IMG/VR virus record: IMGVR_UViG_3300000970_000001
Coordinates: 1 to 64,000 of that record
Strand: one strand, 5' to 3'
Length of the DNA: 64,000 nt
Source: a virus
Positions within the stretch are counted from its first letter, which is position 1. Each line of letters starts with the position of its first letter. Made by a program: the position numbers and the translations under genes. The notes below the pieces were generated by a model. It ran no database searches and was not told the DNA's origin. It saw only the letters and a list, made by a program, of their open reading frames with translations. Shown piece after piece: positions 10,464-43,954 of the stretch.

Positions 10464-11192
10464 GTGCAGTATGTTTTAAAAGATACTGACGCAAGCTTTC
10501 ATTTAGATTTTCTATTAGATGGAAACCTTGTTGTCCCTGATACATCATCTGTTAGATTAACTCTTACAGAGCCTGATGGAACAGTACTAACAGGTTATAA
10601 CGATATTAGTCTCTCTCCTACTGTAGGAGAGAGCTTCGTTGTGTTTGAAACAACAGCTCTTGCAAACTCTAAAAGTAATGACTATGAACTTAGACAAGCT
10701 AGAGTAGATTATACTGTAGATACTAGACCTTTTACTCAATTTTTAAACTATAGAATAGTCGATAGAATTAACTTACCTGTTAATCCAACTGATGTTAGAA
10801 AAGTTTTAGGTATATCGGATGACGAATGGCCTGATTCTAATGTTGATATTGTAGATGCTTACTCTAAAGTTCAGCTTGAAGAAACTCTTGATGGTGTAGA
10901 TACAGAAGCTATATTGAATGGTGGGACTGCATTGGTATCATATTTAATTGAAGCTATTAAATTAAAAGCTGCTATTGATATTCTACCTGTTTTAGAACTT
11001 GTTGCTACTCAGAGTCAACAAGCTGATAATGTTTCTTTCAGACGTTTTGAAAAAGTTGACTTTCCTTACATAAGGAAAAACCTTATGGACAGATACTCTA
11101 TAGCTATATCACAAACTGTAGGACAGGCTGATATTACTCTTACGTTAGCAACTACTGGTGTAGGTACAGATGCGGTGACTGGAGACGGTTAA
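10464..11192 (+). CDS. hypothetical head-tail connector module protein
   Basis: 242-aa ORF with a GTG start, in a co-oriented gene run between capsid and tail genes. Confidence 0.45.
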   Translation: MQYVLKDTDASFHLDFLLDGNLVVPDTSSVRLTLTEPDGTVLTGYNDISLSPTVGESFVVFETTALANSKSNDYELRQARVDYTVDTRPFTQFLNYRIVDRINLPVNPTDVRKVLGISDDEWPDSNVDIVDAYSKVQLEETLDGVDTEAILNGGTALVSYLIEAIKLKAAIDILPVLELVATQSQQADNVSFRRFEKVDFPYIRKNLMDRYSIAISQTVGQADITLTLATTGVGTDAVTGDG

Positions 11193-11728: not shown

Positions 11729-12405
11729 TGACTTTAAATTATCAGAGAGTTATGAATTCTCTTTTTAAAGTCGTTGAAGAGAGTTTTGAAGATACATTTG
11801 AGTCTAATGTAAAAAAGTTAGACAGAGAAGTTAATAAAGCACAATCCAGATTTTTTAAAAAGCTTGTTAATAAGGCTATTGATGTAAAGTCAGCACCATC
11901 TTTAGACGAATATACACCTGTGTGGAAAGCTTTAAATCCTAAATACCTACAGGAAAAGAGAAGATTAGGACAAGGAACTAACTTTTTTAAAAAGACAGGG
12001 GAACTAAAAACGTCTCTATCTTCTTTAAAACCTTTAACGGTGTTAGGTAAGCCAGTTGTTTATTTTAGCCCCTCTGGCCTCTCAGGGACTCCAGGTGTGA
12101 GGGAAACTAGAGAAAGATGGAAAGGTAGCTCTTCTAAGAGAAAGGTGGTCAGAGACAGCCGTGGACGCTTTGCTAGTGCTAGTAATATCCCAAGGTACAT
12201 TAGTGCTTCTATGACTATTGATCCATATCCCAATATTTTAAAAAACGCGGCTTCAGAAATTATTAATGAAAGTGATGTACTTCCTGATAATATTGCTGTA
12301 AAGTTAAAAGCACCAAATGGTAGAAGAGTAAGACCAGTCTTTACTAATTTTTTAAACTGGTTTTTAGAAAAAGAAATAAGAAAAGCCGCAGAGAGAGTTG
12401 TTTAG
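11728..12405 (+). CDS. hypothetical head-tail connector module protein
   Basis: 225-aa basic ORF with a start/stop overlap (TAATG). Confidence 0.45.
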   Translation: MTLNYQRVMNSLFKVVEESFEDTFESNVKKLDREVNKAQSRFFKKLVNKAIDVKSAPSLDEYTPVWKALNPKYLQEKRRLGQGTNFFKKTGELKTSLSSLKPLTVLGKPVVYFSPSGLSGTPGVRETRERWKGSSSKRKVVRDSRGRFASASNIPRYISASMTIDPYPNILKNAASEIINESDVLPDNIAVKLKAPNGRRVRPVFTNFLNWFLEKEIRKAAERVV

Positions 12406-13121: not shown

Positions 13122-13880
13122 ATGCCAGGTTTAGCTAAAACTGATGACTTTATGCTTGGTACAGCGACTGTTATGATTGGTCCACAAGCAGATTTGTTTG
13201 ACCTAGGTCCAGACGAGTCAATTGGCTTGGTGAAAAATTTCTCACTAAGTTCTGATCCATCATATACTGATCTAACACAAGGTGTTAAAAACACTCTTGT
13301 TTATTCTGTTCTTACACAGAATACTGTACGAGCAAGTATGGAGACATATGAATTTACTTCACAAAACATTGCCTATGGTCTAGGTCTTGCTGGAACTTAC
13401 ACTAAGAACACTGTAGAGTCTACAGTTGCTTCTGAAGTAACTTCTGGTTCTGATTTTGACGTAGCTGCTGCTGACGGTGCTAATTTTGCTGTTGATGATG
13501 TTGTTATGATTCTAAATGATTCAGAAGACGACTTTGTTATTCGTAAGATTACAGCAATTGCAACTGACACAATCACAGTTAATGTAGCTTTTGGTCAAAC
13601 AATTGCTGCGGGTGCTAAAGTGATTAAAGTTAGTGAATTGGGTGTTGGTTCTAAAACAGAACAACCATTCTATTCTGCTAAAATCGCTGGTAAGCTAGCA
13701 AACGGTGAACCAATCGTTATGTTACTTCCAAAAGTTCGTATTGTTCAAGGTTTCAATGTATCGTTCTCATCTGATGATTACGGTAACATGCCTTTTGAAT
13801 TTTCGATCTATGACCTTGTTTCAACTGATCCTAACTACGCTTACTTTGGCGGGGACTCAGCGAAAATCATTCGTCAGTAA
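13122..13880 (+). CDS. major tail tube protein
   Basis: 252-aa ORF with an RBS-like AAAGGA. It is followed by a terminator, then the chaperone pair and the tape measure. Confidence 0.7.
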   Translation: MPGLAKTDDFMLGTATVMIGPQADLFDLGPDESIGLVKNFSLSSDPSYTDLTQGVKNTLVYSVLTQNTVRASMETYEFTSQNIAYGLGLAGTYTKNTVESTVASEVTSGSDFDVAAADGANFAVDDVVMILNDSEDDFVIRKITAIATDTITVNVAFGQTIAAGAKVIKVSELGVGSKTEQPFYSAKIAGKLANGEPIVMLLPKVRIVQGFNVSFSSDDYGNMPFEFSIYDLVSTDPNYAYFGGDSAKIIRQ

Positions 13881-30651: not shown

Positions 30652-31329
30652 ATGAAAAAGAAGAACTCTGTAAACGATGCTCAACGAGCAAACAAAATCA
30701 ATCTCTATCCTAAAAACAATAAACAAAGAGAGTATATAGAAGCCCTTCGAAATCATGACCAAGTATTTGCAATAGGACCTGCAGGAGCAGGTAAAACTTA
30801 TATTCCTACTATAATGGCAACTCAAGCCTATCTACGTGGTGACATCAAAAAGATAATCCTTACACGTCCTGCTGTTGCTGTTCAGGAAGAACATGGATTC
30901 TTACCTGGCTCCATTGACAAAAAGTTAGCCCCGTGGGTGTTACCAGTTACAGAAGTGATTGAGGAAGCCTTAGGTTCTAAACAACGCTTCCTTGACATGC
31001 TCAAGGCAGGTGACCTTGAGGTGGCTCCTTTTACTTATATGAGGGGTAGAACCTTCAAGGATGCCTTTGTCCTATTGGACGAGGCTCAGAACACCACAAA
31101 GGAACAGATGAAGATGTTCTTAACACGATTGGGAGAGAACGCCAAAGTTGTCATCAGTGGTGATATCGAACAGTCTGATATCAGAGCGGGGAGTGGACTA
31201 GCAATGGCTGTTGATCTTATTGACACTCACGATATTCCAGCCGCTAAGGTTGAGTTTAGAAGTAACCATGTGGTTCGTTCAGAATTGTGTAAGATGTGGG
31301 TTGAGGCATTTGAAAAAGGCCCCGATTAA
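30652..31329 (+). CDS. phoH: PhoH-like ATPase
   Basis: 225 aa with Walker A GPAGAGKTY and LLDEAQN; size typical of phage PhoH. Confidence 0.88.
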   Translation: MKKKNSVNDAQRANKINLYPKNNKQREYIEALRNHDQVFAIGPAGAGKTYIPTIMATQAYLRGDIKKIILTRPAVAVQEEHGFLPGSIDKKLAPWVLPVTEVIEEALGSKQRFLDMLKAGDLEVAPFTYMRGRTFKDAFVLLDEAQNTTKEQMKMFLTRLGENAKVVISGDIEQSDIRAGSGLAMAVDLIDTHDIPAAKVEFRSNHVVRSELCKMWVEAFEKGPD

Positions 31330-31342
31330 CGGGACCTTTTAT
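31318..31342. terminator. bidirectional hairpin at the convergence of the plus and minus transcription units
   Basis: GGCCCCG AUUAA CGGGACC with A-run and U-run flanks. It includes the phoH stop codon. Confidence 0.6.
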
Positions 31343-31497
31343 ATTCTTTATCTCGTCCGTTCTGTTGCTAAGTGGATGAATCTCCGAATTAGGCAGCTAG
31401 TGCGTAATCCATATTGCTATTATCATTTGCGATTAAGTAATACTAACATAGTATTTATCTTAAAATCAAGCGTTAATTAATACAATAATATTATTTA

Positions 31498-31574
31498 TGG
31501 TACTAGCGGAAGGATTCGAACCCTCAACCTGCGGAGTAGAAATCCGCTGCTCTAGTCCGTTGAGCTACGCTAGC
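31498..31574 (-). tRNA. tRNA-Arg (anticodon UCU)
   Basis: Hand-folded cloverleaf: acceptor GCUAGCG/CGCUAGU (G1-U72), anticodon stem-loop GCGGA UUUCUAC UCCGC, T-loop UUCGAAU, encoded CCA. Confidence 0.85.
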
Positions 31575-31637
31575 ATGTTGGAGGAAGGCACTGGTCCCGA
31601 TCCAGATGGTACATTTAAACCACGCAATGATTAGCAA

Positions 31638-31991
31638 TCACCCACAGCGACCCCGCTGTTTTACCTTCCATTCAATTCTCTGATACCACATATCATACTT
31701 ATAGGCTAACTTCCAGAGTGAGTTTTTAATTTTCCACAATCGATACTGCCACCCATTATTAATAAAAGCTTCTGTTGACATCTTAGGTACAGGAAACCAA
31801 GGAGGGCCATCTAAGTTACGAATAGGCATCAAGTCATTTGCATCAATGGTTAGAATAAGTTCCAACTCTGTCATACGTTCTTCAGGTGTTAGAGTATACC
31901 AATCTTCTCCTGTAGTTACGTGGAATCTTTTTATTCCTTTAGATTCCAAATGATCTGCTAAATCATCTCTTCTCTGTTCTAGTGTTTTCAT
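31638..31991 (-). CDS. hypothetical protein
   Basis: 117-aa ORF inside the tRNA island with a 4-nt overlap with the upstream ORF. Confidence 0.5.
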   Translation of the reverse strand: MKTLEQRRDDLADHLESKGIKRFHVTTGEDWYTLTPEERMTELELILTIDANDLMPIRNLDGPPWFPVPKMSTEAFINNGWQYRLWKIKNSLWKLAYKYDMWYQRIEWKVKQRGRCG

Positions 31992-32290
31992 ACTAATAGT
32001 CCCATTACGTATCGCGTTTCATTAAGTAACTCTTTTGGTATTCTAACATCTCCATTATGAAATGCTTTTAAAATTAAGTTAGCTGCTTTTTGTAGTCTTT
32101 GTTGATGTCTTATTTCCTCTTTAAAAAACTTACCAACATCAGGTAATTTTTTATATGTATGATATAATTGTTCAGTATTAGCAAACTCTTTTCTAAATAA
32201 TTTTAAGTTGTCTTCGTCTTCTTGAGTAGGACAGTTATAAAAGTTTATTATGTTTCCATAGTGTGTCCTAGTAATTATCATATCAACCAT
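31988..32290 (-). CDS. hypothetical protein
   Basis: 100-aa ORF starting 14 nt downstream of tRNA-Ser. Confidence 0.5.
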   Translation of the reverse strand: MVDMIITRTHYGNIINFYNCPTQEDEDNLKLFRKEFANTEQLYHTYKKLPDVGKFFKEEIRHQQRLQKAANLILKAFHNGDVRIPKELLNETRYVMGLLV

Positions 32291-32304
32291 GTTCTTGCTC
32301 CTAG

Positions 32305-32398
32305 TGGCGGTGGGTTAGGGGATCGAACCCTAAAGGGAGTATTAGTCCTCGCTGGTTTTCAAGACCAGTGCAGTCGCCAGCCATCTGCTTGACCCACC
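32305..32398 (-). tRNA. tRNA-Ser (UGA), long variable arm
   Basis: 94 nt: acceptor GGUGGGU/ACCCACC, anticodon stem-loop CUGGU CUUGAAA ACCAG, T-loop UUCGAUC, G73, CCA. Confidence 0.85.
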
Positions 32399-32406
32399 TT
32401 ATTATA

Positions 32407-32484
32407 TGGCACTACCCGTAGGACTCGAACCTACAACCTTCGGATTCGTAATCCGATGCTCTAGTCCAATTGAGCTAGAGTAGT
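32407..32484 (-). tRNA. tRNA-Arg (ACG)
   Basis: Anticodon stem-loop UCGGA UUACGAA UCCGA, D-arm GCUC AAUUGGACUA GAGC, T-loop UUCGAGU, CCA. Confidence 0.88.
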
Positions 32485-32522
32485 ATATCAAAACTCATTA
32501 TTGATCCGTACTTGTAGATCAA

Positions 32523-32607
32523 TGGTGGGCGGGTGCAGATTCGAACTACTCCCCCGAAGAGAAAGGCTTTACAGGCCTCGTGCTAGAACCACTAGCTTTA
32601 CCCACCC
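32523..32607 (-). tRNA. tRNA-Tyr (GUA), long variable arm
   Basis: 85 nt: acceptor GGGUGGG/CCCGCCC, anticodon stem-loop GAGGC CUGUAAA GCCUU, CCA. One mismatch at the base of the T-stem. Confidence 0.8.
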
Positions 32608-32612
32608 ATTAT

Positions 32613-32689
32613 TGGGTTGTGTGATGGGATTCGAACCCACAGCCTGATCGATCACACCGATCTGCTCTAACCGTTGAGCTACACACAAC
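32613..32689 (-). tRNA. tRNA-His (GUG) with encoded G-1
   Basis: An extra 5' G pairs with C73, the His hallmark. Anticodon stem-loop GAUCG GUGUGAU CGAUC, CCA. Confidence 0.88.
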
Positions 32690-32696
32690 ATATTTT

Positions 32697-32771
32697 TGGC
32701 GAACGTGAAGGGGATTGAACCCTCATCTTCTTCCTCGACAGGGAAGCGCATTACCAGTCTGCCACACGTTC
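32697..32771 (-). tRNA. tRNA-Asp (GUC)
   Basis: Acceptor GAACGUG/CACGUUC, anticodon stem-loop CUUCC CUGUCGA GGAAG, T-loop UUCAAUC, CCA. Confidence 0.88.
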
Positions 32772-32919
32772 TAATCTAATTTTTAATTTTTGTCTAGTAC
32801 CACTCTTTGTTTTACCTAAGTTAATATTTCTTTTGTAGTACTGACAACATCTACACCACTTATGCTTTTTACCCCTCTTTATGTTTATCATAGATTTCAT
32901 AGTTATTCTCCTTAAAATT

Positions 32920-32994
32920 TGGTGCTAGATGAAAGACTCGAACTCTCAATTCCTGATTACAAAACAGGCGTGTTGCCATTAACACTAAACTAGC
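32920..32994 (-). tRNA. tRNA-Thr (UGU)
   Basis: Anticodon loop UUUGUAA, T-loop UUCGAGU, CCA. One U-U mismatch in each of the acceptor and anticodon stems. Confidence 0.75.
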
Positions 32995-32995
32995 A

Positions 32996-33070
32996 TGGTG
33001 GCCGCACGAAGACTCGAACTTCAATCCTACCCATTATGAGTGGGCAGCTCTACCCCTGAGCTATACGGCT
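32996..33070 (-). tRNA. tRNA with CAU anticodon (Met, initiator-like or Ile2; undecided)
   Basis: Anticodon stem-loop GCCCA CUCAUAA UGGGU. Positions 1:72 are unpaired (A-C), an initiator-like trait, but the 29-31 GGG signature is absent. CCA encoded. Confidence 0.75.
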
Positions 33071-33076
33071 TTAATT

Positions 33077-33151
33077 TGGTATCAGAAACTGGATTCGAAC
33101 CAATATCTTCTAGCTTATGAGACTAGCGCTTTTCCGTTAAGCTATCCTGAT
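33077..33151 (-). tRNA. tRNA with CAU anticodon (Met or Ile2; undecided)
   Basis: Acceptor AUCAGGA/UUCUGAU, anticodon stem-loop CUAGU CUCAUAA GCUAG, T-loop UUCGAAU, CCA. Confidence 0.8.
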
Positions 33152-33599
33152 GTGTTTTATTTCTCCTTATACAGGAAATAGTTGAATGGGAAACATTAAA
33201 TAGTTTACCGATTTCTGTATTATTAATCCCTTCTTTTATCAACTGTCTTACTTTAATTAAATCTGATTGAGTTAATTTACTATTGTTATTCTTAGTTCCT
33301 GTTTGTATTGATCCAAGTCTATTTTTATTTGCTGCGTCTACCATATTATCTTTAGGAGTACCATCAAACAAATGATTAGGATTAACACATTTTGGATTGT
33401 CACACTTATGACAACAAAACTCTTTTGGAAAAACTTTATGTTTTAAGTAAAAAGAATATCTGTGGGCATAGTGTATACCTCTACCTATTTTTCTACGTTT
33501 TACTACACCATACCCGTGGTTATTTAAAGCTCCTAACCATTGCCAGCATTCATTTTCTTTACCTATTTTAACCTTATCCCAGAATAAATTATCTTTCAT
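33123..33599 (-). CDS. HNH homing endonuclease
   Basis: Carries CWQWLGALNNHGYG...YAHRYSF...CHKCDNPKCVNPNHL plus a C-terminal HTH-like NTEIGKLFNVSHSTIS. The last 9 codons and the stop lie inside the tRNA at 33077-33151. Confidence 0.88.
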   Translation of the reverse strand: MKDNLFWDKVKIGKENECWQWLGALNNHGYGVVKRRKIGRGIHYAHRYSFYLKHKVFPKEFCCHKCDNPKCVNPNHLFDGTPKDNMVDAANKNRLGSIQTGTKNNNSKLTQSDLIKVRQLIKEGINNTEIGKLFNVSHSTISCIRRNKTHQDSLTEKR

Positions 33600-33616
33600 T
33601 TTTGTACCTTCTTAAT

Positions 33617-33691
33617 TGGTGCAGGAACAGATGATCGAAATCTGAACTCAAGTTTGGAAGACTTGCACGTTGCCACTTACGCCATTCCTGC
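33617..33691 (-). tRNA. tRNA-Gly (UCC)
   Basis: Acceptor GCAGGAA/UUCCUGC, anticodon stem-loop CAAGU CUUCCAA ACUUG, T-arm CAGAU UUCGAUC AUCUG, CCA. Confidence 0.85.
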
Positions 33692-33700
33692 ACTTAGTAT

Positions 33701-33776
33701 TGGTGGAACCCCTAGGAATCTAACCCAATCCTTCTGGTCTTCAATCAGATGTGCGCAACAGCTACACCAGAGTTCC
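33701..33776 (-). tRNA. tRNA-Phe (GAA), atypical T-loop
   Basis: Anticodon loop UUGAAGA, A31-C39 mismatch, T-loop UUAGAUU (A56), D-loop AGCUGUUGC (G18 U19), CCA. Confidence 0.65.
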
Positions 33777-33782
33777 GTTATT

Positions 33783-33860
33783 TGGCTGGAGTAATTGGAT
33801 TCGAACCAATCTTCATCTCGGTTAACAGCCGAGTGCATTCGCCTAGAATACTATACTCCA
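33783..33860 (-). tRNA. tRNA-Asn (GUU)
   Basis: Acceptor UGGAGUA/UACUCCA, anticodon stem-loop CUCGG CUGUUAA CCGAG, T-loop UUCGAAU, CCA. Confidence 0.88.
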
Positions 33861-33864
33861 AAAT

Positions 33865-33898
33865 TAAAAAACCCTCCTCAAGTACTTCTTGGGAGGGT
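33865..33898 (-). terminator. intrinsic terminator A, abutting the tRNA-Asn 5' end
   Basis: Minus-strand RNA ACCCUCC CAAGAAGUACUUGA GGAGGGU followed by UUUUUUAAUUUU. tRNA-Asn begins right after the U-tract. Confidence 0.75.
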
Positions 33899-33924
33899 GA
33901 AAATAAATAAACATACTTAATTGT

Positions 33925-33981
33925 TTACATACAACGACCCTCATCACCGCTTCTTCCAAAGCCGCGTGTCGAATAATTCAT
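33925..33981 (-). CDS. leader peptide ORF A (MNYSTRGFGRSGDEGRCM), putative attenuator leader
   Basis: 18 codons, starting 16 nt after the receiver-gene stop. 16 of 18 residues belong to the specificities of the downstream tRNA block. GAGGGU (33937-33942) is complementary to the terminator 5' arm ACCCUC. Confidence 0.55.
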   Translation of the reverse strand: MNYSTRGFGRSGDEGRCM

Positions 33982-33997
33982 ATCTGTATGTATACAG

Positions 33998-34336
33998 TTA
34001 AACATTTTCTTTAATCCAGTTTAGAACTTTCTGTTCAAGTTCTGATTTATCTACCATTTGATCCTGTGGTAGGTACAGGTTATTCATGTATAGTAACCCA
34101 GATGTAATTATAAAGTCAACTTCTTTTTTAACTTTAGGTCTAAGATCATCATAAATGGCTTTACCGTTTTCGTTTGATAGGTTTATATCTAATATTATAA
34201 GATCGTATTTGTCTATACTTATGGTAAAACCGTCATAATCACCAACAGTATGTATTTCTATTTCACAATCCTTTAACTTTTCTCTTAGTAATATACGTTC
34301 AGTAGGACAATCGTCAATATATAGAATGTGTTTCAT
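33998..34336 (-). CDS. stand-alone CheY-like receiver domain protein
   Basis: 112 aa from ATG 34336; the longer track ORF runs over two tRNA genes. Sequence MKHILYIDDCP...DLIILDINLSNENG...DFIITSG...VDK carries the acidic pair, phospho-acceptor Asp, Thr/Ser and Lys positions of receiver domains. Confidence 0.6.
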   Translation of the reverse strand: MKHILYIDDCPTERILLREKLKDCEIEIHTVGDYDGFTISIDKYDLIILDINLSNENGKAIYDDLRPKVKKEVDFIITSGLLYMNNLYLPQDQMVDKSELEQKVLNWIKENV

Positions 34337-34359
34337 TCCAGTATAGTAACATATAATAA

Positions 34360-34436
34360 TGGTACACGCCACAGGAATTGAACCTGTCTTAAAGAGGATG
34401 TAAACCTCCCGCTTAACGCCAGTCAGCCAGACGTGT
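34360..34436 (-). tRNA. tRNA-Val (UAC)
   Basis: Acceptor ACACGUC/GGCGUGU, anticodon stem-loop GGAGG UUUACAU CCUCU, T-loop UUCAAUU, CCA. Confidence 0.85.
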
Positions 34437-34442
34437 CTAAAT

Positions 34443-34518
34443 TGGTGGAACCTGTGGGAATCAAACCCACCGCAGTCTGCTTGCAAAGCAGTCTCGCCCT
34501 CTTGGAACATGAGGCCCC
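34443..34518 (-). tRNA. tRNA-Ala (UGC), atypical D-arm and T-loop
   Basis: 76 nt: acceptor GGGGCCU/AGGUUCC with G3-U70, anticodon loop UUUGCAA, T-loop UUUGAUU (U56). The D-arm folds only as GUUC/GGGC with a short loop. CCA encoded. Confidence 0.65.
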
Positions 34519-34524
34519 TTAAAC

Positions 34525-34601
34525 TGGAGATCGCGGTGGGATTCGAACCCACATACTTCTGGGTAAAAACCAGACGTAACAGCCAGTTGTACTACGCGAT
34601 C
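34525..34601 (-). tRNA. tRNA-Lys (UUU)
   Basis: Acceptor GAUCGCG/CGCGAUC, anticodon stem-loop UCUGG UUUUUAC CCAGA, T-loop UUCGAAU, CCA. Confidence 0.85.
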
Positions 34602-34602
34602 T

Positions 34603-34678
34603 TGGTTGTCGATGAAGGATTCGAACCTTCAACCTGCCCCTAATCAGGGGGCTGCACTACCAGTTGTGCTAATCGACA
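34603..34678 (-). tRNA. tRNA-Ile (GAU)
   Basis: Acceptor UGUCGAU/AUCGACA, anticodon stem-loop GCCCC CUGAUUA GGGGC, T-loop UUCGAAU, CCA. Confidence 0.88.
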
Positions 34679-34679
34679 A

Positions 34680-34705
34680 TAAAAAACCCACCTAAAAGGT
34701 GGGTC
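34680..34705 (-). terminator. intrinsic terminator B, abutting the tRNA-Ile 5' end
   Basis: Minus-strand RNA ACCCACC UUUUA GGUGGGU followed by UUUUUUAU. Confidence 0.75.
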
Positions 34706-34737
34706 TAGAATTCTTTTTCTTAAACATACGAAAAGAT

Positions 34738-34800
34738 TCAGCCCACCCCTCTGGTGTCTGCTTTAATCTTAATCGCTACAATGTTGTTTTGCTCTCGCAT
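34738..34800 (-). CDS. leader peptide ORF B (MREQNNIVAIKIKADTRGVG), putative attenuator leader
   Basis: 20 codons with GAGG upstream. Residues 7-14 (IVAIKIKA) use only the four specificities of the tRNAs that follow (Ile, Lys, Ala, Val). The last codons GGGGUGGGC (34741-34749) copy the terminator 3' arm and can pair with its 5' arm. Confidence 0.6.
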   Translation of the reverse strand: MREQNNIVAIKIKADTRGVG

Positions 34801-34820
34801 TTTCTCTATTTCCTCTAACT

Positions 34821-34897
34821 TGGAAGGGCTAACGGGATTCGAACCCGCGTCTACCAATTGAAAGTCGGTATGTCCTTGACCACTAGACGATAGCCCC
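34821..34897 (-). tRNA. tRNA-Glu (UUC)
   Basis: Anticodon stem-loop ACCGA CUUUCAA UUGGU, D-arm GUCUAGUGGUCAAGGAC, T-loop UUCGAAU, G1-U72, CCA. Confidence 0.85.
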
Positions 34898-34929
34898 ATT
34901 AAGTTAGTTTGGTGCTTATCGTTAGGATT

Positions 34930-34959
34930 AATATAACCTAGTTAATATAGGTATGTCAA
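34930..34959 (-). promoter_or_regulatory. sigma70-type promoter TTGACA-N18-TATATT facing tRNA-Glu
   Basis: The exact -35 consensus (plus 34954-34959 TGTCAA) and a 5/6 -10 (plus 34930-34935 AATATA) lie about 30 nt upstream of the tRNA-Glu 5' end. Confidence 0.55.
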
Positions 34960-34973
34960 CTTCTTTATTTAAT

Positions 34974-35047
34974 TGGCACAGGAACAAGGAATCAAACCTC
35001 AGTCTGCGGGGTTGGAAGCCGCCGTGTTATCACTACACTATTCCTGC
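34974..35047 (-). tRNA. tRNA-Trp (CCA), atypical D/T loops
   Basis: 74 nt: anticodon loop UUCCAAC with a C31-C39 mismatch, D-loop AGUGAUA (G18 A19), T-loop UUUGAUU (U56), CCA. Confidence 0.7.
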
Positions 35048-35048
35048 A

Positions 35049-35126
35049 TGGTTGGAGAGGTGGGGTTCGAACCCACATTGCACCCGTTCAAAGCGGGTAG
35101 CCTTACCAACTGTTGGCTACTCTCCA
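35049..35126 (-). tRNA. tRNA-Gln (UUG)
   Basis: U1-A72, anticodon stem-loop ACCCG CUUUGAA CGGGU, T-loop UUCGAAC, CCA. Confidence 0.88.
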
Positions 35127-35129
35127 TAA

Positions 35130-35206
35130 TGGTGCTCCCCCTCAGATTCGAACTGAGACTGTACCGCTTCTAAGGCGGCTCCCTCTGCCAGTTGGGGTAG
35201 AGGAGC
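35130..35206 (-). tRNA. tRNA with Leu anticodon UAG but a short (5-nt) variable loop
   Basis: 77 nt: acceptor GCUCCUC/GGGGAGC, anticodon stem-loop GCCGC CUUAGAA GCGGU, variable ACAGU, T-arm CUCAG UUCGAAU CUGAG, A73, CCA. Confidence 0.7.
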
Positions 35207-35214
35207 GTTATAAT

Positions 35215-35292
35215 TGGTCGGGTGGGCAAGATTCGAACTTGCGATACTCGGCCTCCAAAGCCGATAACTTGACCAGACTAGTTCACCACCCG
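35215..35292 (-). tRNA. tRNA-Pro (UGG)
   Basis: C1-G72, acceptor CGGGUGG/CCACCCG, anticodon stem-loop UCGGC UUUGGAG GCCGA, CCA. Confidence 0.88.
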
Positions 35293-35369
35293 TGGTACTC
35301 TCAGTCAGATTCGAACTGACACTGTGGGGATTTTAAGTCCCCTGCCTCTTCCAGTTGGGCTATGAGAGC
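35293..35369 (-). tRNA. tRNA with Leu anticodon UAA but a short (5-nt) variable loop
   Basis: 77 nt: acceptor GCUCUCA/UGAGAGU, anticodon stem-loop GGGGA CUUAAAA UCCCC, variable ACAGU, T-arm GUCAG UUCGAAU CUGAC, A73, CCA. It is a paralogue of the UAG tRNA. Confidence 0.7.
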
Positions 35370-35370
35370 T

Positions 35371-35410
35371 TAATACAAAAAGCCCCTCTATCTTGCGATT
35401 AGGGGCTTTT
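35371..35410 (-). terminator. intrinsic terminator C, abutting the first tRNA of the island
   Basis: Minus-strand RNA AAAAGCCCCU A AUC GCAA GAU AG AGGGGCUUUU UGUAUU, a 7-bp GC stem plus an inner GNRA-capped stem. Confidence 0.75.
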
Positions 35411-35439
35411 AAATTCTTTTGAACTTACTTAGACATACC

Positions 35440-35496
35440 TCAACGCTGTTCTCCTAAAGGGAGCAATTGTTGCAGTTGTGGTAACCAGTTGTTCAT
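35440..35496 (-). CDS. leader peptide ORF C (MNNWLPQLQQLLPLGEQR), putative attenuator leader
   Basis: 18 codons, starting 14 nt after the stop of the 105-aa gene. Residues 4-14 (WLPQLQQLLPL) use only Trp, Leu, Pro and Gln, exactly the specificities of the five tRNAs that follow. Confidence 0.6.
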   Translation of the reverse strand: MNNWLPQLQQLLPLGEQR

Positions 35497-35510
35497 AGTG
35501 TTAATATAGT

Positions 35511-35828
35511 CTATTCTTTGTTGTTTGTCAAATTTAAAAATTCTTCAGGAGTCATTTCAGTAGCAAGAAACTTATTTTCCTTGGTTATATACTGAACAGG
35601 TTCGATTATCTGACTGTCTATGTCAAGATATGCAACGTACCTTAGTATCTTATCCTCATCATTGACAGTTGGTGATTCTATTAAAGCTTTACATGGTGAA
35701 AACAACCAGTATCCATTATCTCCATATTTAGAAGAAAACACATACGTGAAGTCTTCATTAGGTATAATATGAAGAATCTTTACTGATTCATAAGATTCTT
35801 CTGATCCAAGTATAAATTTTTTAGTCAT
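35511..35828 (-). CDS. hypothetical protein
   Basis: 105-aa ORF with RBS AGAGGA. It lies downstream of the tRNA-like RNA and upstream of leader C. Confidence 0.55.
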   Translation of the reverse strand: MTKKFILGSEESYESVKILHIIPNEDFTYVFSSKYGDNGYWLFSPCKALIESPTVNDEDKILRYVAYLDIDSQIIEPVQYITKENKFLATEMTPEEFLNLTNNKE

Positions 35829-35878
35829 AGTTAGTCCTCTGTGGTTTAAGAGTTAAAAGTTAAAGTTACTCAGTAAAT

Positions 35879-35940
35879 TGGTGGAGCCGCTCGGTATTGC
35901 ACCGAGGTCCAGACTAAGCTGTCGATCCTATTTCGGCCCC
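35879..35940 (-). ncRNA. 62-nt tmRNA tRNA-like-domain (TLD)-like RNA lacking an mRNA-like domain
   Basis: Sequence: GGGGCCG AAAUA GGAUCGAC AGCUUAGUCU GGAC CUCGG UGCAAUA CCGAG CGGCUCC ACCA. It has a 7-bp acceptor stem with G3-U70, a T-arm, A73 and encoded CCA. GGAUCGAC and GGAC match tmRNA 5'/3' end motifs (E. coli GGAUUCGAC ... GGAC). Confidence 0.55.
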
Positions 35941-36084
35941 GAATAAGTGAAGAGGGAGAGGTTGGGATACTACTCTCATAGACCATGACCAAATACCTTT
36001 TGATTTACTGATCTAACCTATCGTTACTCTCATGTAGAGTAGCAGTGTCCCGCCCGATAGTACCTTATAACCTTTGGTAAGCTA

Positions 36085-36321
36085 TTATTCAGCCACCTCT
36101 TCATCTGGTATGCCTACCAGATATTCTAATAATTCTCTTGCTTTAAACTCATAAATGTCATACAGGCCATACTCTCGTATTTTTAAACCTGTTACTGATC
36201 CTATTTGAGTTGCGATTACATTAGCATATACTCTTGGGTATCGCAACTCAATAATAGGATTTTTTGGATTAATTTTAATCGCTTCCTGACATGTTTCTTT
36301 TAACCCTCGCAAGCGATACAT
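36085..36321 (-). CDS. hypothetical protein
   Basis: 78-aa ORF overlapping the nrdA 3' end by 22 nt. Confidence 0.45.
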   Translation of the reverse strand: MYRLRGLKETCQEAIKINPKNPIIELRYPRVYANVIATQIGSVTGLKIREYGLYDIYEFKARELLEYLVGIPDEEVAE

Positions 36322-37973
36322 CCTTCGTTCTTAGCACGTTCACGCATAAACGCTTGAGCCTCACTTAAGGAGTACTGGTAGTAAAGGGTTTTAAGACCTA
36401 GTTCCCAAGCTGTAAAGTATAGTCTATTGATCTCTCGCGTTGGCATTTGAGGGTCAACCATAATATTAATTGATTGACCTTGGTCAATATAGGGCTGACG
36501 TACTGCTGCCTGATTCAAAATTGCTTCAGGATCAATCTCATATATAGTTTTAAATACTTGTTTTTCTTGATCTGTAAGGAAGTCAAGATGTTGTACTGAA
36601 CCGTCTTGTGCTCTGATTGATAACCATACTTCTTTAGTATTCTGGTTATGACGTTCAAGCACTGGTACAAGATAAGGATTCTTCCAAGTCATTTTATCTT
36701 TGGCACAGTCCTTAACATAGTAATTAGAAAACTCTGGTTCAATTGACATTGATACCTGTCCTAAAATGTATGAAGACGACTTAGTTGGAGCCACCGCTAA
36801 TAAAGTGGTGTTTCTACGACCTTTACCTTTTAGTAACTTAGGTTCACCGAATATTTCTGCAAGTTTTCCACTTGCCTTATATGCATCGTTGTTAATCTTT
36901 TTAAAGATTTCTAAGTTTAACTTAGCAGCTTCTCTACTCTCAAATGGTATTTCATTTTTAAGAAGGTAGGCATGCCATCCAAGTACACCTACTCCAAGTG
37001 CTCTGTGTTCTTTAGCAAACTTACGTACACGTCTCATGAGGTACTGAATTTCCTCATTCATTTCGTCAATTCTCTCTAAGAACTCTGTCACAACTGAGTC
37101 TAAGAACATAGTGAGAACTTCGACAGCATCTGTGTTTTTCCATTCATCATACTCCGAGATATTCATTGAGGATAAAACACACACAAAAGATTCATCGGGC
37201 GAGGATGGTAACGCGATTTCCGTACACATATTTGATGCGTTAATTTTCATGTTATTTTCTTTATAAACATCTACAGTATCTCGGTTCACTGTATCAGTAA
37301 AGAAGATGTACGGTACACCTTTCTCTGATCGGACGCGTAGAACTTCTGCCCAACGGTCCTGTGCTTCTTCATCACCATCACGAACTCTGTTCATGAAGTC
37401 ATCTGATACACAAACACCGTGTTTAGTGTTTTGAATTGTGTGTTCTTCTGTTCCGATTTTAACGAAGTCATAAAAATCTCCGTGATCTATATCTATGTAA
37501 GGAGAGAATTGACCTCGTCTTACTGATCCTTGAGACACTACGTTAGCCACTTTGTCAAACATACCCATAAAGTGTACGGCTCCAAATGACTCCCCATTAT
37601 TGGAAATCGCTGCACCACGAGGGCGTAACTTACCAAAGTAACCTGATGTACCGCCGCCAAACTTAGACAACATTCCTACTTCAGCAGCCGTAAACAAAAT
37701 GTTTTCCATGTTGTCACTAATGTCTGAGTTAAAGCAGGACACTGGTAAACCTCTTGTGGTTGCATAATTTGACCACACAGGAGAGGACAATGAGTAAAAC
37801 CCACGCGACATGTAGTCGTAGAATTTATCTCCTATACCTTCGATACCATTGATCCCTTGAAATCTATCAGCAATCACTCGAACACGCTCGGGCACGGTCT
37901 GGCCCTCAGCTAGATAATCTCTTTGAATAAATTTTTGTGAGTGTTCGTTCACCCAATTAAAGTTTGTATACAT
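36300..37973 (-). CDS. nrdA: ribonucleotide reductase large subunit, class I, without an ATP-cone
   Basis: 557 aa with GGGTSGYFGKLRPRGA, the active-site NMCTEIALPS and a C-terminal CIACEG Cys pair. Its start abuts the nrdB stop. Confidence 0.9.
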   Translation of the reverse strand: MYTNFNWVNEHSQKFIQRDYLAEGQTVPERVRVIADRFQGINGIEGIGDKFYDYMSRGFYSLSSPVWSNYATTRGLPVSCFNSDISDNMENILFTAAEVGMLSKFGGGTSGYFGKLRPRGAAISNNGESFGAVHFMGMFDKVANVVSQGSVRRGQFSPYIDIDHGDFYDFVKIGTEEHTIQNTKHGVCVSDDFMNRVRDGDEEAQDRWAEVLRVRSEKGVPYIFFTDTVNRDTVDVYKENNMKINASNMCTEIALPSSPDESFVCVLSSMNISEYDEWKNTDAVEVLTMFLDSVVTEFLERIDEMNEEIQYLMRRVRKFAKEHRALGVGVLGWHAYLLKNEIPFESREAAKLNLEIFKKINNDAYKASGKLAEIFGEPKLLKGKGRRNTTLLAVAPTKSSSYILGQVSMSIEPEFSNYYVKDCAKDKMTWKNPYLVPVLERHNQNTKEVWLSIRAQDGSVQHLDFLTDQEKQVFKTIYEIDPEAILNQAAVRQPYIDQGQSINIMVDPQMPTREINRLYFTAWELGLKTLYYQYSLSEAQAFMRERAKNEGCIACEG

Positions 37974-41926: not shown

Positions 41927-43954
41927 TTATTTCCTCAATTCTATCTGATGGTCTGCATCAGGCTTTTGGTGTGATACTATTACGATTTGTCCAATGGTTG
42001 ATTTAAGATTGCGTAAACACTCAGCAGTATATGAGGCTCTATCTTTATCCATAGCGGCATCAATCTCGTCTGCTAAAAAGACACTGAATACTTTGTTAGT
42101 TAAAACTGTACCTAAACCTATTCTTATTGCTAGATTGGCTACAGCTTTACCAGAACCAGATAGTTCTTCAATGGCTTGTCCATCGATCTTGATGTTAAAT
42201 TGTTCATCAATCTCGACTTTGTTACGTTCTCCCTTAGTCATTTCTGAAATCAACATGCTTGATACTTTATTCAGACTTGGAACTAAGAACATCTTAACCT
42301 TTGGTTTCAAATCTTTCAAGCCGTTTTTAACATTTTCATCACGATTTATTGATTTTTTTAATGTTTCTATCTCTTTTTGTCTTTCATCCATGATTTTTTG
42401 TTGTTGTTCATAGCTCTTATACTCACTATCATACACAGCAAACCGACTAGCCTGTATACGCCAGAACTGAATCTCCTTATCTATACCAGATAGTTCTTTC
42501 AATCTCTGTTCCACAACATCTTTCTTTTCCATGAACTCATTATACTGACCAAGAATTACCCCATAAGATTCTAATGCTCTTGTCTCTTCTTTCTTAGTCT
42601 CTATCATATCAGTCAAGTCTACCATAAACTTACAAGCATCTTCTTGTGCATGAAGTTCAGTTCTGAGATCAAGATACTCTTGATGTAGTTTAAACTGTGC
42701 AATATCTTTCATGAGTAACATTTCAGTATCGTCTGGTTTCTCAACCTCAACAATATCAGGACGACACGAATAGGCATGAATCATATCCTCATACATCTTT
42801 AACTCATGTTCATTAGCTTTTATTTCACCAAACGGAGTGGTAGCAGGTATGAAGGCTAACTCAGCTTTCAAGTCTCTAAGTCTTTCATGTCCCCTAGCAA
42901 ATTCTCCATCACATAACGGACATGTTATACTGTGTTCTTCCTCTAACTCTATGTTTTTCTGTAGAGTAACTTTTTGTTCACTTAGCTCTCTATTCTTTAT
43001 CCATAATCTCTGCTCGTCAATCCACTCTTGCGTTCTTGGAGGCTCTGGGTATCTGAGAACAAGCTCCTGATACTGGTTCCATGCTTGAAGCTTCTCTTCG
43101 CGTTCCTGAAGTGACTTCTCATCTGTGACTGAACATGTTGAGGGCAAGGCTTCCATCTTTGCTGTGAGATAGTTAATGCGGGTTTTGATTTCATTGTATT
43201 TCTCCTGTTTAAGTTGTAAAGATTGCAGTGGCTCCTGTATTGTAACAGTAGGTGCTACAGGCTCCTCTATACTATTAGATTGCATCCATGCGTTGAGTTC
43301 TGTGAACTCTTTAAACTCTCGCTCTCCTCGCTCAAGTTTCTCTGTTCTCTTTGGTTCTGCCACATAACCTTCTGGCTTTTCAGGCTCTTGTAAACTTTGT
43401 AGCGTGGATTCAAGAGCTTCAACAGTGCGCTTGTTGGACGACATTTCGTTATTAACATGCTTAATCACTTTCTCGATAGCGTCTAGTCCTATCGTTCTTT
43501 CGACCATACGTTTACGTTCGGCAGGTGTTTTGTCTGACAGAGCCTCGACCTGTCCCTGTAGACAAGCGTTAGACACATCAAAGACTTCTAGGTTATAGCC
43601 TAATAGTTTTTCTATAGCTTCGTTGACAGGCTTCGTGCCTGACACAATGGTCTTATCGTTTTGTAAAAGACAATCACTACCTGTCTTATTACGTTTAACA
43701 GTGTAGGCATCATCGCTCTGTAGTGGTAAAAGAAATGTTAACTCAGACTTCAAACTCTTATAACCAGAAGAAGCTCCTCTAAGTGCTTTAGTTCCGAACA
43801 AAGCGTAACGAATCATTTCTATAACCATAGACTTCCCTGACTCGTTAGGGCCAGTGATAGCAGTCATACCATTATCGATATCAAAGTTACCCTTGATGGT
43901 TCTCATAGTGGACGCAAACGTGACATCATATTTAATCGTCTTCAACATCAGCAA
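41927..43954 (-). CDS. SbcC/Rad50-like recombination ATPase
   Basis: Walker A GPNESGKSM, a long coiled coil with a CPLC hook, signature LSGSGKAVANL, Walker B FLADEIDAAMD. Confidence 0.85.
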   Translation of the reverse strand: MLMLKTIKYDVTFASTMRTIKGNFDIDNGMTAITGPNESGKSMVIEMIRYALFGTKALRGASSGYKSLKSELTFLLPLQSDDAYTVKRNKTGSDCLLQNDKTIVSGTKPVNEAIEKLLGYNLEVFDVSNACLQGQVEALSDKTPAERKRMVERTIGLDAIEKVIKHVNNEMSSNKRTVEALESTLQSLQEPEKPEGYVAEPKRTEKLERGEREFKEFTELNAWMQSNSIEEPVAPTVTIQEPLQSLQLKQEKYNEIKTRINYLTAKMEALPSTCSVTDEKSLQEREEKLQAWNQYQELVLRYPEPPRTQEWIDEQRLWIKNRELSEQKVTLQKNIELEEEHSITCPLCDGEFARGHERLRDLKAELAFIPATTPFGEIKANEHELKMYEDMIHAYSCRPDIVEVEKPDDTEMLLMKDIAQFKLHQEYLDLRTELHAQEDACKFMVDLTDMIETKKEETRALESYGVILGQYNEFMEKKDVVEQRLKELSGIDKEIQFWRIQASRFAVYDSEYKSYEQQQKIMDERQKEIETLKKSINRDENVKNGLKDLKPKVKMFLVPSLNKVSSMLISEMTKGERNKVEIDEQFNIKIDGQAIEELSGSGKAVANLAIRIGLGTVLTNKVFSVFLADEIDAAMDKDRASYTAECLRNLKSTIGQIVIVSHQKPDADHQIELRK

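Follow-up and report, generated by a model that had tools for sequence, protein, structure and literature searches.

A cluster of phage tRNA genes on the minus strand of the DNA analyzed here, positions 1 to 64,000 of the IMG/VR virus record IMGVR_UViG_3300000970_000001 (this whole 64-kb stretch is called the window below), is probably gated by ribosome-mediated attenuation, with each of several short leader open reading frames (ORFs) sensing the decoding capacity for the very tRNA species encoded behind it. For the system as a whole, we put the probability of this mechanism at roughly 0.7, based on an analysis that is computational throughout. The cluster extends from 35.4 to 31.5 kb. Module C, at its head, appears to be one of three such attenuators, together with modules B and A (Table 1); taken alone, it is less certain than the system as a whole, because its antiterminator is weak and its leaderless start is predicted only. 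The original prediction, made from the letters of this region, had proposed for module C a trp-like attenuator with leader codons that mirror the downstream tRNAs. This core idea is strongly supported by the statistics and by genome comparison, and it recurs in the two sister modules of the window as well as in four modules of relatives.

Leader C is dominated by codons for the tRNAs that follow it

Re-reading of the sequence yielded exactly the leader ORF coordinates and the codon list originally given, with the ATG located 14 nt past the stop codon (TAG, 35513-35511) of a 105-aa ORF, and with codons 4-14 (35487-35455) restricted to Trp (W), Leu (L), Pro (P), and Gln (Q). The five tRNAs behind terminator C, on which ARAGORN and Rfam agree, are likewise those named at the outset: Leu(UAA), Pro(UGG), Leu(UAG), Gln(UUG), and Trp(CCA). 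All five species are represented in the codon run by at least one codon each, including both the UUR and the CUN families of Leu codons. The run, WLPQLQQLLPL, is the longest W/L/P/Q run in the window and the only one of 11 residues among the approximately 128,000 codon positions of the six frames. Runs of at least eight residues occur four times in the six frames, and the other three are dominated by L and Q, two of them containing only these two residues. Among the long ORFs of the window (at least 100 aa), no 11-residue stretch attains the W/L/P/Q composition of this run. Significance was assessed with a run scan in which, for each tRNA group, the codon runs ahead of it could contain no other amino acids than those of the tRNAs that follow; a run of this kind, located no farther than 260 nt ahead of the five tRNAs, has an expected count of 4e-6. 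Altogether, 12 of the 17 codons of leader C belong to its own tRNA set, compared with four for the module A set and none for the module B set. Enrichment of codons that report on the regulated function, one test of membership in the attenuator class, is evident in module C.

Sister modules and relatives share the logic with different leader sequences

Leader B precedes tRNAs for Ile, Lys, Ala, and Val. Runs of at least eight residues drawn from these four amino acids occur three times in the 64 kb, and only the run of leader B, IVAIKIKA, has all four residues. For leader A, codons 2-20 span each of the 10 amino acids represented by its 13 downstream tRNAs (17 of the 19 codons belong to this tRNA set, two are others), and this is the sole such site in the six frames; its run HTDMNYSTRGFGRSGD is one of three runs of at least 16 residues in the six frames. 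The expected counts (E) in the run scan were 6e-4 for leader B and 1e-3 for leader A. The match extends to the level of isoacceptors: the Arg codons CGC and AGA and the Ser codons UCG and AGC are all found in leader A, and the UUR and CUN codons of Leu in leader C. Ile is encoded by AUU in leader B, before tRNA-Ile(GAU), and by AUA in leader A, before two CAU tRNAs, one of which may be the lysidine Ile2 tRNA, by analogy with the annotation of T5; such a tRNA would account for the AUA codon, which every A-type leader retains. An Asn-Asn pair (AAC AAC) precedes the regulatory run in leader C (35493-35488) as well as in leader B (34788-34783, both on the minus strand); it is unexplained by matching within these modules, as tRNA-Asn is located in module A.

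Public data contain very few close relatives, and the lineage was found via an SbcC-like ATPase (window 41930-43954). Besides the relatives described here, related phages of the L017 and L020 lineages occur in SRR4039775 and ERZ23498651. In L016 (Logan SRR23008605; SbcC 53% identical), the tRNA order is the same as in the window, with an additional tRNA-Cys, and three modules (C', B', and A') follow the same logic with different leader sequences; for none of these leaders does the six-frame translation of the locus contain a second such site. Leader A' holds all 11 amino acids of its tRNA set, Cys included. In L111 (SRR21722015; SbcC 40% identical), leader A'' precedes Asn-Phe-Gly, where the contig ends. 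Alignments revealed that the regulatory codons are reshuffled among the relatives, for example, IVAIKIKA in the window versus VVKAVAIIK in L016, and leader A occurs in three different orders; module B has retained its antiterminator and terminator strands. The composition is kept and the sequence is not, the pattern that is predicted by selection on decoding, not by selection on a peptide.

Terminators and competing pairings

The hairpin of terminator C is formed by the arms AGCCCCU (35407-35401) and AGGGGCU (35387-35381), with an inner AUC/GAU stem and a GCAA loop, and the whole of module C folds with z = -3.36. Only 8 nt separate this terminator from tRNA-Leu(UAA), which starts at 35369. This is too little room for a promoter, and no promoter-like site is present between the two. 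Module C thus has an intrinsic terminator before the regulated genes and no internal promoter, a second test of membership in the attenuator class. In all seven modules, terminators of -14.5 to -19 kcal/mol adjoin the first tRNA; because of this arrangement, the gated tRNAs would be expressed by read-through only.

To evaluate the antiterminators, we determined the strongest duplex that the leader region can form with the terminator 5' arm and compared it with those of 1000 dinucleotide shuffles. The duplexes were significant for window B (-15.1 kcal/mol, p 0.003), L016 C' (-16.2 kcal/mol, p 0.003), L016 B' (-14.2 kcal/mol, p <0.001), and L016 A' (-19.4 kcal/mol, p 0.04). The values for the other three modules were -11 kcal/mol for window A (GAGGGU:ACCCUC, p 0.08), -8.9 kcal/mol for L111 A'' (p 0.10), and -8.3 kcal/mol for window C (p about 0.3-0.4). 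The Fisher combined p over the seven modules is 7e-7. In six of the seven, the upstream strand of the antiterminator overlaps the stop codon or is located within about 15 nt of it. When a ribosome footprint was modelled, the terminator 5' arm was captured with the A site on the regulatory codons and freed at the end of the ORF, and in the ribosome-mask folding of module B, the switch falls after the regulatory run. The modelled geometry is the classical one, in which a stall leads to read-through and completion of the leader leads to termination.

For module C itself, four segments with alternative pairings had been proposed. When their energies were computed, these pairings turned out to be no stronger than those in shuffled sequence, and the 2:3 pairing UUAGG(A)G:CCCCUAA, at -4.6 kcal/mol, is too weak. 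The proposed 1:2 pairing CUCC/GGAG is a predicted hairpin of the minimum-free-energy structure, and it is conserved in L016 as GCUCC-CAUUGU-GGAGC, though the 3' half codes differently there. Its assignment as segments 1 and 2 is doubtful, since it is not the antiterminator strand in L016; it may serve as a pause hairpin. For leader C, a significant 1:2 fold was rejected, as the folding of the leader by itself does not surpass that of shuffles (z = -0.96). The best candidate for the 5' strand of an antiterminator in module C is AGCGUUGAGGU, which could pair with CCCUAAUCGCA (-8.3 kcal/mol; p 0.29-0.40 versus shuffles). This strand (35447-35437) is free with the modelled ribosome on codons 2-13 and masked from codon 14 on.

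It is conceivable, if unlikely, that the leaders are translated and codon-matched and act by another route, that is, via Rho access, processing by RNase E or RNase P, stability of the pre-tRNA, or a switch of reversed polarity, in which efficient translation promotes read-through. The chance-level antiterminator of module C would fit such a route, as would the different geometry of L016 C', where the stop codon lies 25 nt beyond the antiterminator strand, and the small conserved CUCC/GGAG hairpin, which is without an assigned role. However, a canonical intrinsic terminator adjoins the tRNA in every module, and four of the seven modules pair significantly with the terminator 5' arm, via a strand that a terminating ribosome would cover. 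Both features belong to the classical geometry.

Promoters and the start of the leaders

A sigma-70-type promoter, P_C, is located inside the 3' end of the 105-aa ORF and matches the consensus at 11 of 12 positions. Only two sites of the form TTGACA-N16-18-TAWAWT were found in the 64 kb, P_C and P_B, compared with 0.41 expected. The -10 hexamer of P_C ends 6 nt before the ATG of leader C, and the same 6-nt gap is present at all four promoter-leader junctions (window C, L016 C', L016 A', and L111 A''), with unrelated spacer sequences. A rival reading is that the hairpin is simply the terminator or insulator of the upstream unit, leaking constitutively into the tRNAs, and that the short ORFs encode micropeptides with a composition unrelated to regulation. 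An abundance of small ORFs, promoters, and terminators of unassigned function is indeed annotated in phage tRNA regions, for instance, in that of T5. Nevertheless, we consider this explanation very unlikely: a dedicated strong promoter would drive merely a 57-nt ORF into a terminator, L016 has no upstream protein gene to terminate, and the leaders of the relatives keep their composition and not their sequence, which is the opposite of a functional peptide.

Because the usual spacing between the -10 hexamer and the start is about 7 nt and P_C ends 6 nt upstream, transcription of module C is predicted to start at or next to A35496, the A of the leader AUG. There is no Shine-Dalgarno (SD) sequence at leader C, and the transcript is probably leaderless (5'-AUG) and translated as such; leaderless translation of the leaders is the best inference because the 6-nt spacing between promoter and ATG recurs in the relatives. 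On initiation, the original prediction was right about the missing SD sequence, and the coupling or re-initiation that it considered is unnecessary, as P_C ends 6 nt from the ATG and L016 lacks the 105-aa gene. Leader B has GAGGA 10 nt upstream of its start, L016 B' also has an upstream purine-rich ribosome-binding sequence, and the ATG of leader A overlaps the stop codon of a receiver-domain ORF and is thus placed for translational coupling.

These signals bear on the idea that the codon run is read without translation, whether through tRNA anticodons, as in a T-box, or through a protein. The missing SD sequence of module C would be compatible with such a sensor. Yet in seven of seven modules, the matching triplets all share a single reading frame that is bounded by a start and a stop codon, ribosome-binding sequences precede B and B' and leader A is positioned for coupling, and neither a T-box-like architecture nor an Rfam match was found. 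A translation-independent RNA sensor is therefore hardly credible.

Control clusters and database searches

The same run scan was applied to other phage tRNA clusters. In T5 (25 tRNAs; best E 0.2), none of the tRNA groups turned out to be preceded by a codon-matched leader, and the same was true of Pseudomonas phage PPSC2 (22 tRNAs; best E 0.03). Nor did any run with E below 0.03 emerge from 59 metagenome loci of other phage types that carry the tRNA-Leu anticodon arm, of which about 13 have at least six tRNAs and most have one or two. The design as a general property of phage tRNA clusters was accordingly rejected. Among the GenBank phages, there is no nucleotide match to the window, and megablast and blastn searches with the region 34300-36000 yielded only single tRNA-Leu matches. 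The phages with the best RNR alpha matches (61-66% identical) are unrelated and without tRNA clusters. The PhoH relatives in IMG/VR (at most 50% identical) and the 28 SbcC relatives in IMG/VR (23-53% identical) have no clusters, and the region is devoid of tRNAs in Pseudoalteromonas phage KB12-38, the DNA polymerase of which is 42% identical. Exact-pattern scans of IMG/VR for the tRNA-Leu arm, the module B antiterminator, and the tmRNA tag gave no match; a scan of genome contigs gave two chance matches, both without tRNAs. P0130 has no cluster, and the contigs of P0125 and P0126 stop short of the cluster region.

That leader C is a chance ORF beside an ordinary terminator, as might be suspected from its shortness, the lack of an SD sequence, and the lack of a significant alternative fold, is effectively refuted by the statistics already, given the expected count of 4e-6 for module C alone, the six further matching modules in three genomes, and the uniformly negative control clusters.

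Discussion

In the mechanism that we propose for module C, the host RNA polymerase would start at P_C, producing a transcript that begins at or next to the AUG, and a ribosome would translate the 18-codon leader, in which codons 4-14 would be read only by the five tRNA species encoded downstream. With fast decoding, the ribosome would arrive at the UGA and cover the RNA that competes for the terminator 5' arm; the terminator hairpin would then form, and transcription would halt 8 nt before tRNA-Leu. If any of these tRNAs is scarce or uncharged, be it due to phage codon demand, host shut-off, or tRNA-cleaving host defenses, the ribosome would stall within the run, the downstream segment would pair with the terminator 5' arm, and transcription would read through into Leu-Pro-Leu-Gln-Trp. 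The outcome would be a negative feedback, in which the phage tRNAs are made when decoding of the codons that these tRNAs read is limiting. We lean towards the broader view that this lineage runs a modular homeostat of tRNA supply, with a near-complete tRNA set, counted as 20 confident tRNAs and two weak tRNA-like calls, that is partitioned into batches, nearly each of them behind a leaderless leader written in the codons of the gated tRNAs, and transcribed on demand. Host anticodon nucleases are among the possible triggers of such a homeostat, as is the turnover of host tRNAs in the course of infection.

Several observations weigh against the proposed attenuation. In leader C, codons 2-3 (AAC AAC) and the last four (GGA GAA CAG CGU) are outside of the W/L/P/Q run, and of these, the module C tRNAs read only CAG. 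The alternative structure of module C is at chance level (-8.3 kcal/mol, p 0.29-0.40; leader fold z = -0.96), and without an SD sequence, translation of its leader hinges on the predicted leaderless start. Leader A of the window has two Cys codons, and the window has no tRNA-Cys. In L016, leader C' contains V, I, K, and F codons, and its ORF runs 8 codons beyond the antiterminator strand, so that the geometry differs. Finally, the design is present in three genomes only, which are of shared ancestry, and L015, which stands nearest in SbcC (60% identity), contains a single tRNA-Leu and no module; because of L015, the design must be considered lineage-restricted and losable.

The proposed modules have much in common with the enterobacterial leader-peptide attenuators (trp, his, leu, thr, pheA, and ilvGMEDA/ilvBN; RF00513, RF00514, RF00512, RF00506, and RF01859), namely, a short ORF with sensing codons and an intrinsic terminator; the predicted competing pairing would likewise have a 5' strand that a non-stalled ribosome covers. 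In E. coli trp, the 2:3 and 3:4 pairings amount to about -12 and -20 kcal/mol, respectively, and the energies of the phage modules resemble these values. The closest in working are the ilv and thr leaders, which sense several amino acids at once, as the phage leaders would. In contrast to the enterobacterial attenuators, the phage modules would regulate tRNAs and not enzymes, are phage-borne and apparently leaderless, and have leader codon sets that mirror the identities of the downstream tRNAs, with up to 10-11 amino acids per leader. What would be new here is that tRNA genes are the regulated target and that the codons of each leader mirror the tRNA species gated. Membership in an Rfam leader family was rejected: the only matches, on B or B' and none on C, reach 23-28 bits compared with gathering scores of 41-55. 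Specifically, these are Trp_leader (23.2 bits, threshold 41) and Phe_leader (24.9 bits, threshold 55) for module B (34678-34786) and Thr_leader (28.4 bits, threshold 55) for L016 B' (11849-11962), all sub-threshold; they probably reflect a generic resemblance of a leader plus terminator.

The closest by target is the pheST attenuator of E. coli, in which a leader with Phe codons controls phenylalanyl-tRNA synthetase and senses charged tRNA-Phe. It shares with the phage modules, as proposed, the control of the decoding machinery, rather than biosynthesis, by leader-peptide attenuation; however, pheST concerns a synthetase and a single amino acid, whereas the phage modules concern tRNA genes in batches of multiple species. 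The T-box riboswitches of Firmicutes serve the same aim, with read-through decided by a terminator/antiterminator choice when a specific tRNA is uncharged or insufficient, but they bind the tRNA directly by a specifier codon and its acceptor end, without a ribosome. The phage leaders lack such an architecture, and Rfam gave no T-box match at E <= 1, neither for the region 31000-36600 nor for the relatives. The tRNA clusters of T5, T4, Felixounavirus, and PPSC2 likewise comprise about 20 tRNAs each, among which HNH endonucleases, small ORFs, promoters, and tRNA-like RNAs are scattered. These known-phage clusters contain a similar tRNA-Leu (81% identity), and T5 and PPSC2 are without a codon-matched leader.

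To our knowledge, the regulation of phage tRNA genes is largely unexplored, and the reasons why phages carry tRNAs are debated, with codon-usage compensation, degradation of host tRNAs, and escape from tRNA-cleaving defenses as the candidates. No description of leader-peptide control of tRNA genes was found in a full-text literature search of incomplete coverage, so that an earlier description is possible. If the proposed mechanism is correct, tRNA genes would for the first time be shown under the control of ribosome-mediated attenuation, which would extend a textbook mechanism to a new class of targets, and no earlier sensor would have read as many as 11 amino-acid or tRNA species in a single leader. 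Stalling on codons that the downstream tRNAs serve would report decoding capacity directly and link it to tRNA production, and the modules would offer compact and orthogonal sensors, of natural origin, for the availability of as many as 11 tRNA species simultaneously. The idea of tRNAs on demand becomes testable with simple reporter constructs, and a codon run that matches the downstream tRNA set provides a search rule for more such elements.

TABLE 1 Features of the putative attenuator modules in the window and leaders of the related contigs L016 and L111
Feature	Position	Strand	Details
Promoter P_C, sigma-70-type	35503..35531	(-)	TTGACA 35531-35526, 17-nt spacer, TATATT 35508-35503
Leader ORF C	35440..35496	(-)	MNNWLPQLQQLLPLGEQR + stop; ATG 35496-35494, TGA 35442-35440; 18 codons; read directly from the sequence
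Regulatory codon run C	35455..35487	(-)	UGG UUA CCA CAA CUG CAA CAA UUG CUC CCU UUA
Small hairpin C	35451..35463	(-)	CUCC-CUUUA-GGAG; predicted
Candidate antiterminator 5' strand C	35437..35447	(-)	AGCGUUGAGGU; overlaps UGA stop; pairs with CCCUAAUCGCA of terminator 5' arm and loop
Intrinsic terminator C	35377..35410	(-)	AAAAGCCCCU..AUC-GCAA-GAU..AGGGGCUUUU hairpin; U-run (UUUUU) 35381-35377; dG -17.4 kcal/mol
Module C tRNAs	Leu(UAA) 35369-35293, Pro(UGG) 35292-35215, Leu(UAG) 35206-35130, Gln(UUG) 35126-35049, Trp(CCA) 35047-34974	(-)	ARAGORN; Rfam tRNA model 48-58 bits
Promoter P_B	34930..34959	(-)	TTGACA-N18-TATATT; followed by tRNA-Glu(UUC) and module B
tRNA-Glu(UUC)	34897-34821	(-)	ARAGORN; directly behind P_B, ahead of leader B
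Leader B	34738..34800	(-)	MREQNNIVAIKIKADTRGVG + stop; regulatory run IVAIKIKA 34782-34759
Antiterminator strand B	34751-34739	(-)	GAGGGGUGGGCUG; overlaps stop codon
Terminator B	34681..34706	(-)	AGACCCACCU-UUU-AGGUGGGUUU + U-run
Module B tRNAs	Ile(GAU) 34678-34603, Lys(UUU) 34601-34525, degenerate Ala(UGC)-like 34517-34443, Val(UAC) 34436-34360	(-)	
Leader A	33925..34005	(-)	MFNCIHTDMNYSTRGFGRSGDEGRCM + stop
Terminator A	33866..33898	(-)	ACCCUCCCAAG-AAGUA-CUUGAGGAGGGU + U-run; dG -16.7 kcal/mol
Module A, first tRNAs	Asn 33860-33783, Phe 33776-33701, Gly 33691-33617	(-)	
Module A, tRNAs beyond inserted ORFs	end 31498	(-)	two CAU, Thr, Asp, His, Tyr, Arg(ACG), Ser(UGA), Ser(GCU)-like, Arg(UCU)
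L016 leader C'			MIKIFVLLQPVVQLPLWSHFCLGECMHLIST, begins MIKIFVLLQPVVQLPLWSHF; before Leu-Pro-Leu-Gln-Trp
L016 leader B'			MKEMLERNTVVKAVAIIKTDTREVR, contains VVKAVAIIK; before Ile-Lys-Ala-Val
L016 leader A'			MIKVYIHMDTRNFSCSRGGQLEGICV, begins MIKVYIHMDTRNFSCSRGG; before Asn...Arg
L111 leader A''			MITIYFNTNGFNTMNSDRGSLL

The source phage and other features of the cluster

The phage from which the window derives is uncultured and has a size of about 78 kb; the source is a 77.8-kb contig of a JGI metagenome. The phage DNA polymerase shares about 42% identity with its counterparts in Achromobacter phage JWF and in similar siphoviruses, which have about 80 kb. ARAGORN detected 19 tRNAs in the cluster, and relaxed ARAGORN settings together with Rfam added Phe, Tyr, a degenerate Ala-like, and a Ser(GCU)-like tRNA. 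Thus, the tRNAs of the window cover all amino acids except Cys, provided that the degenerate Ala-like tRNA counts. This Ala(UGC) tRNA (34443-34517) was detected only by relaxed ARAGORN and missed by Rfam, and the copy in L016 scores 69 bits. Both Leu tRNAs of module C (UAA, 35369-35293; UAG, 35206-35130) have a length of just 77 nt and a short variable loop; a long variable arm is the norm for bacterial tRNA-Leu. The anticodon arm of tRNA-Leu(UAA) recurs unchanged in 59 metagenome contigs, which belong to many different phages. The tRNA-Cys that is absent from the window (32398-32407) is present in L016 at 13359-13433, between Arg(ACG) and Ser(UGA), and leader A of the window retains two UGU codons although the window is without tRNA-Cys.

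Several protein-coding ORFs are located in or near the cluster. The 105-aa gene next to module C is an ORFan, the only other copy of which is found on an identical 1.25-kb Logan contig. The receiver-domain ORF between tRNA-Val and leader A (33998-34336, minus strand; 112 aa) matches PF00072 with an E value of 2.7e-6, just below the cut-off; it is missing in L016, where a promoter is found in its place. ORFs are inserted among the module A tRNAs at 33123-33599, 32751-32900, and 31638-32290 on the minus strand, and none are present in the compact L016 cluster. An inserted HNH/HTH endonuclease ORF overlaps the first CAU tRNA by 29 nt with its 3' end, an inserted Lys/Arg-rich ORF of 49 aa runs into tRNA-Asp, and two more inserted ORFs comprise 100 and 117 aa.

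The phage also appears to encode a split transfer-messenger RNA (tmRNA). Its predicted pieces on the minus strand of the window are a 62-nt tRNA-like piece, GGGGCCGAAAUAGGAUCGAC...GGCUCCACCA, at 35940-35879, upstream of module C, and a tag-coding piece at 31430-31389, after the last tRNA (GCA AAT GAT AAT AGC AAT ATG GAT TAC GCA CTA GCT GCC TAA, that is, ANDNSNMDYALAA plus stop). Putative tmRNA pieces are also found in the relatives, at 10980-11050 and 13979-14183 in L016, at 19986-20397 in L015, and at 18781-19047 in L111; the matches to the Rfam models tmRNA, tmRNA_permuted, and alpha_tmRNA are all below the gathering scores. The tRNA cluster with its putative attenuators lies between the two pieces in the window and in L016, and the pieces are adjacent in L015 and L111. 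Next to the tRNA-like piece, on its upstream side, the manA RNA motif (RF01745; 35947-36122, minus strand) is matched over the full model length with 47.6 bits and an E value of 3.8e-10, below the gathering score of 55.2; this match overlaps the end of a conserved 78-aa ORF.

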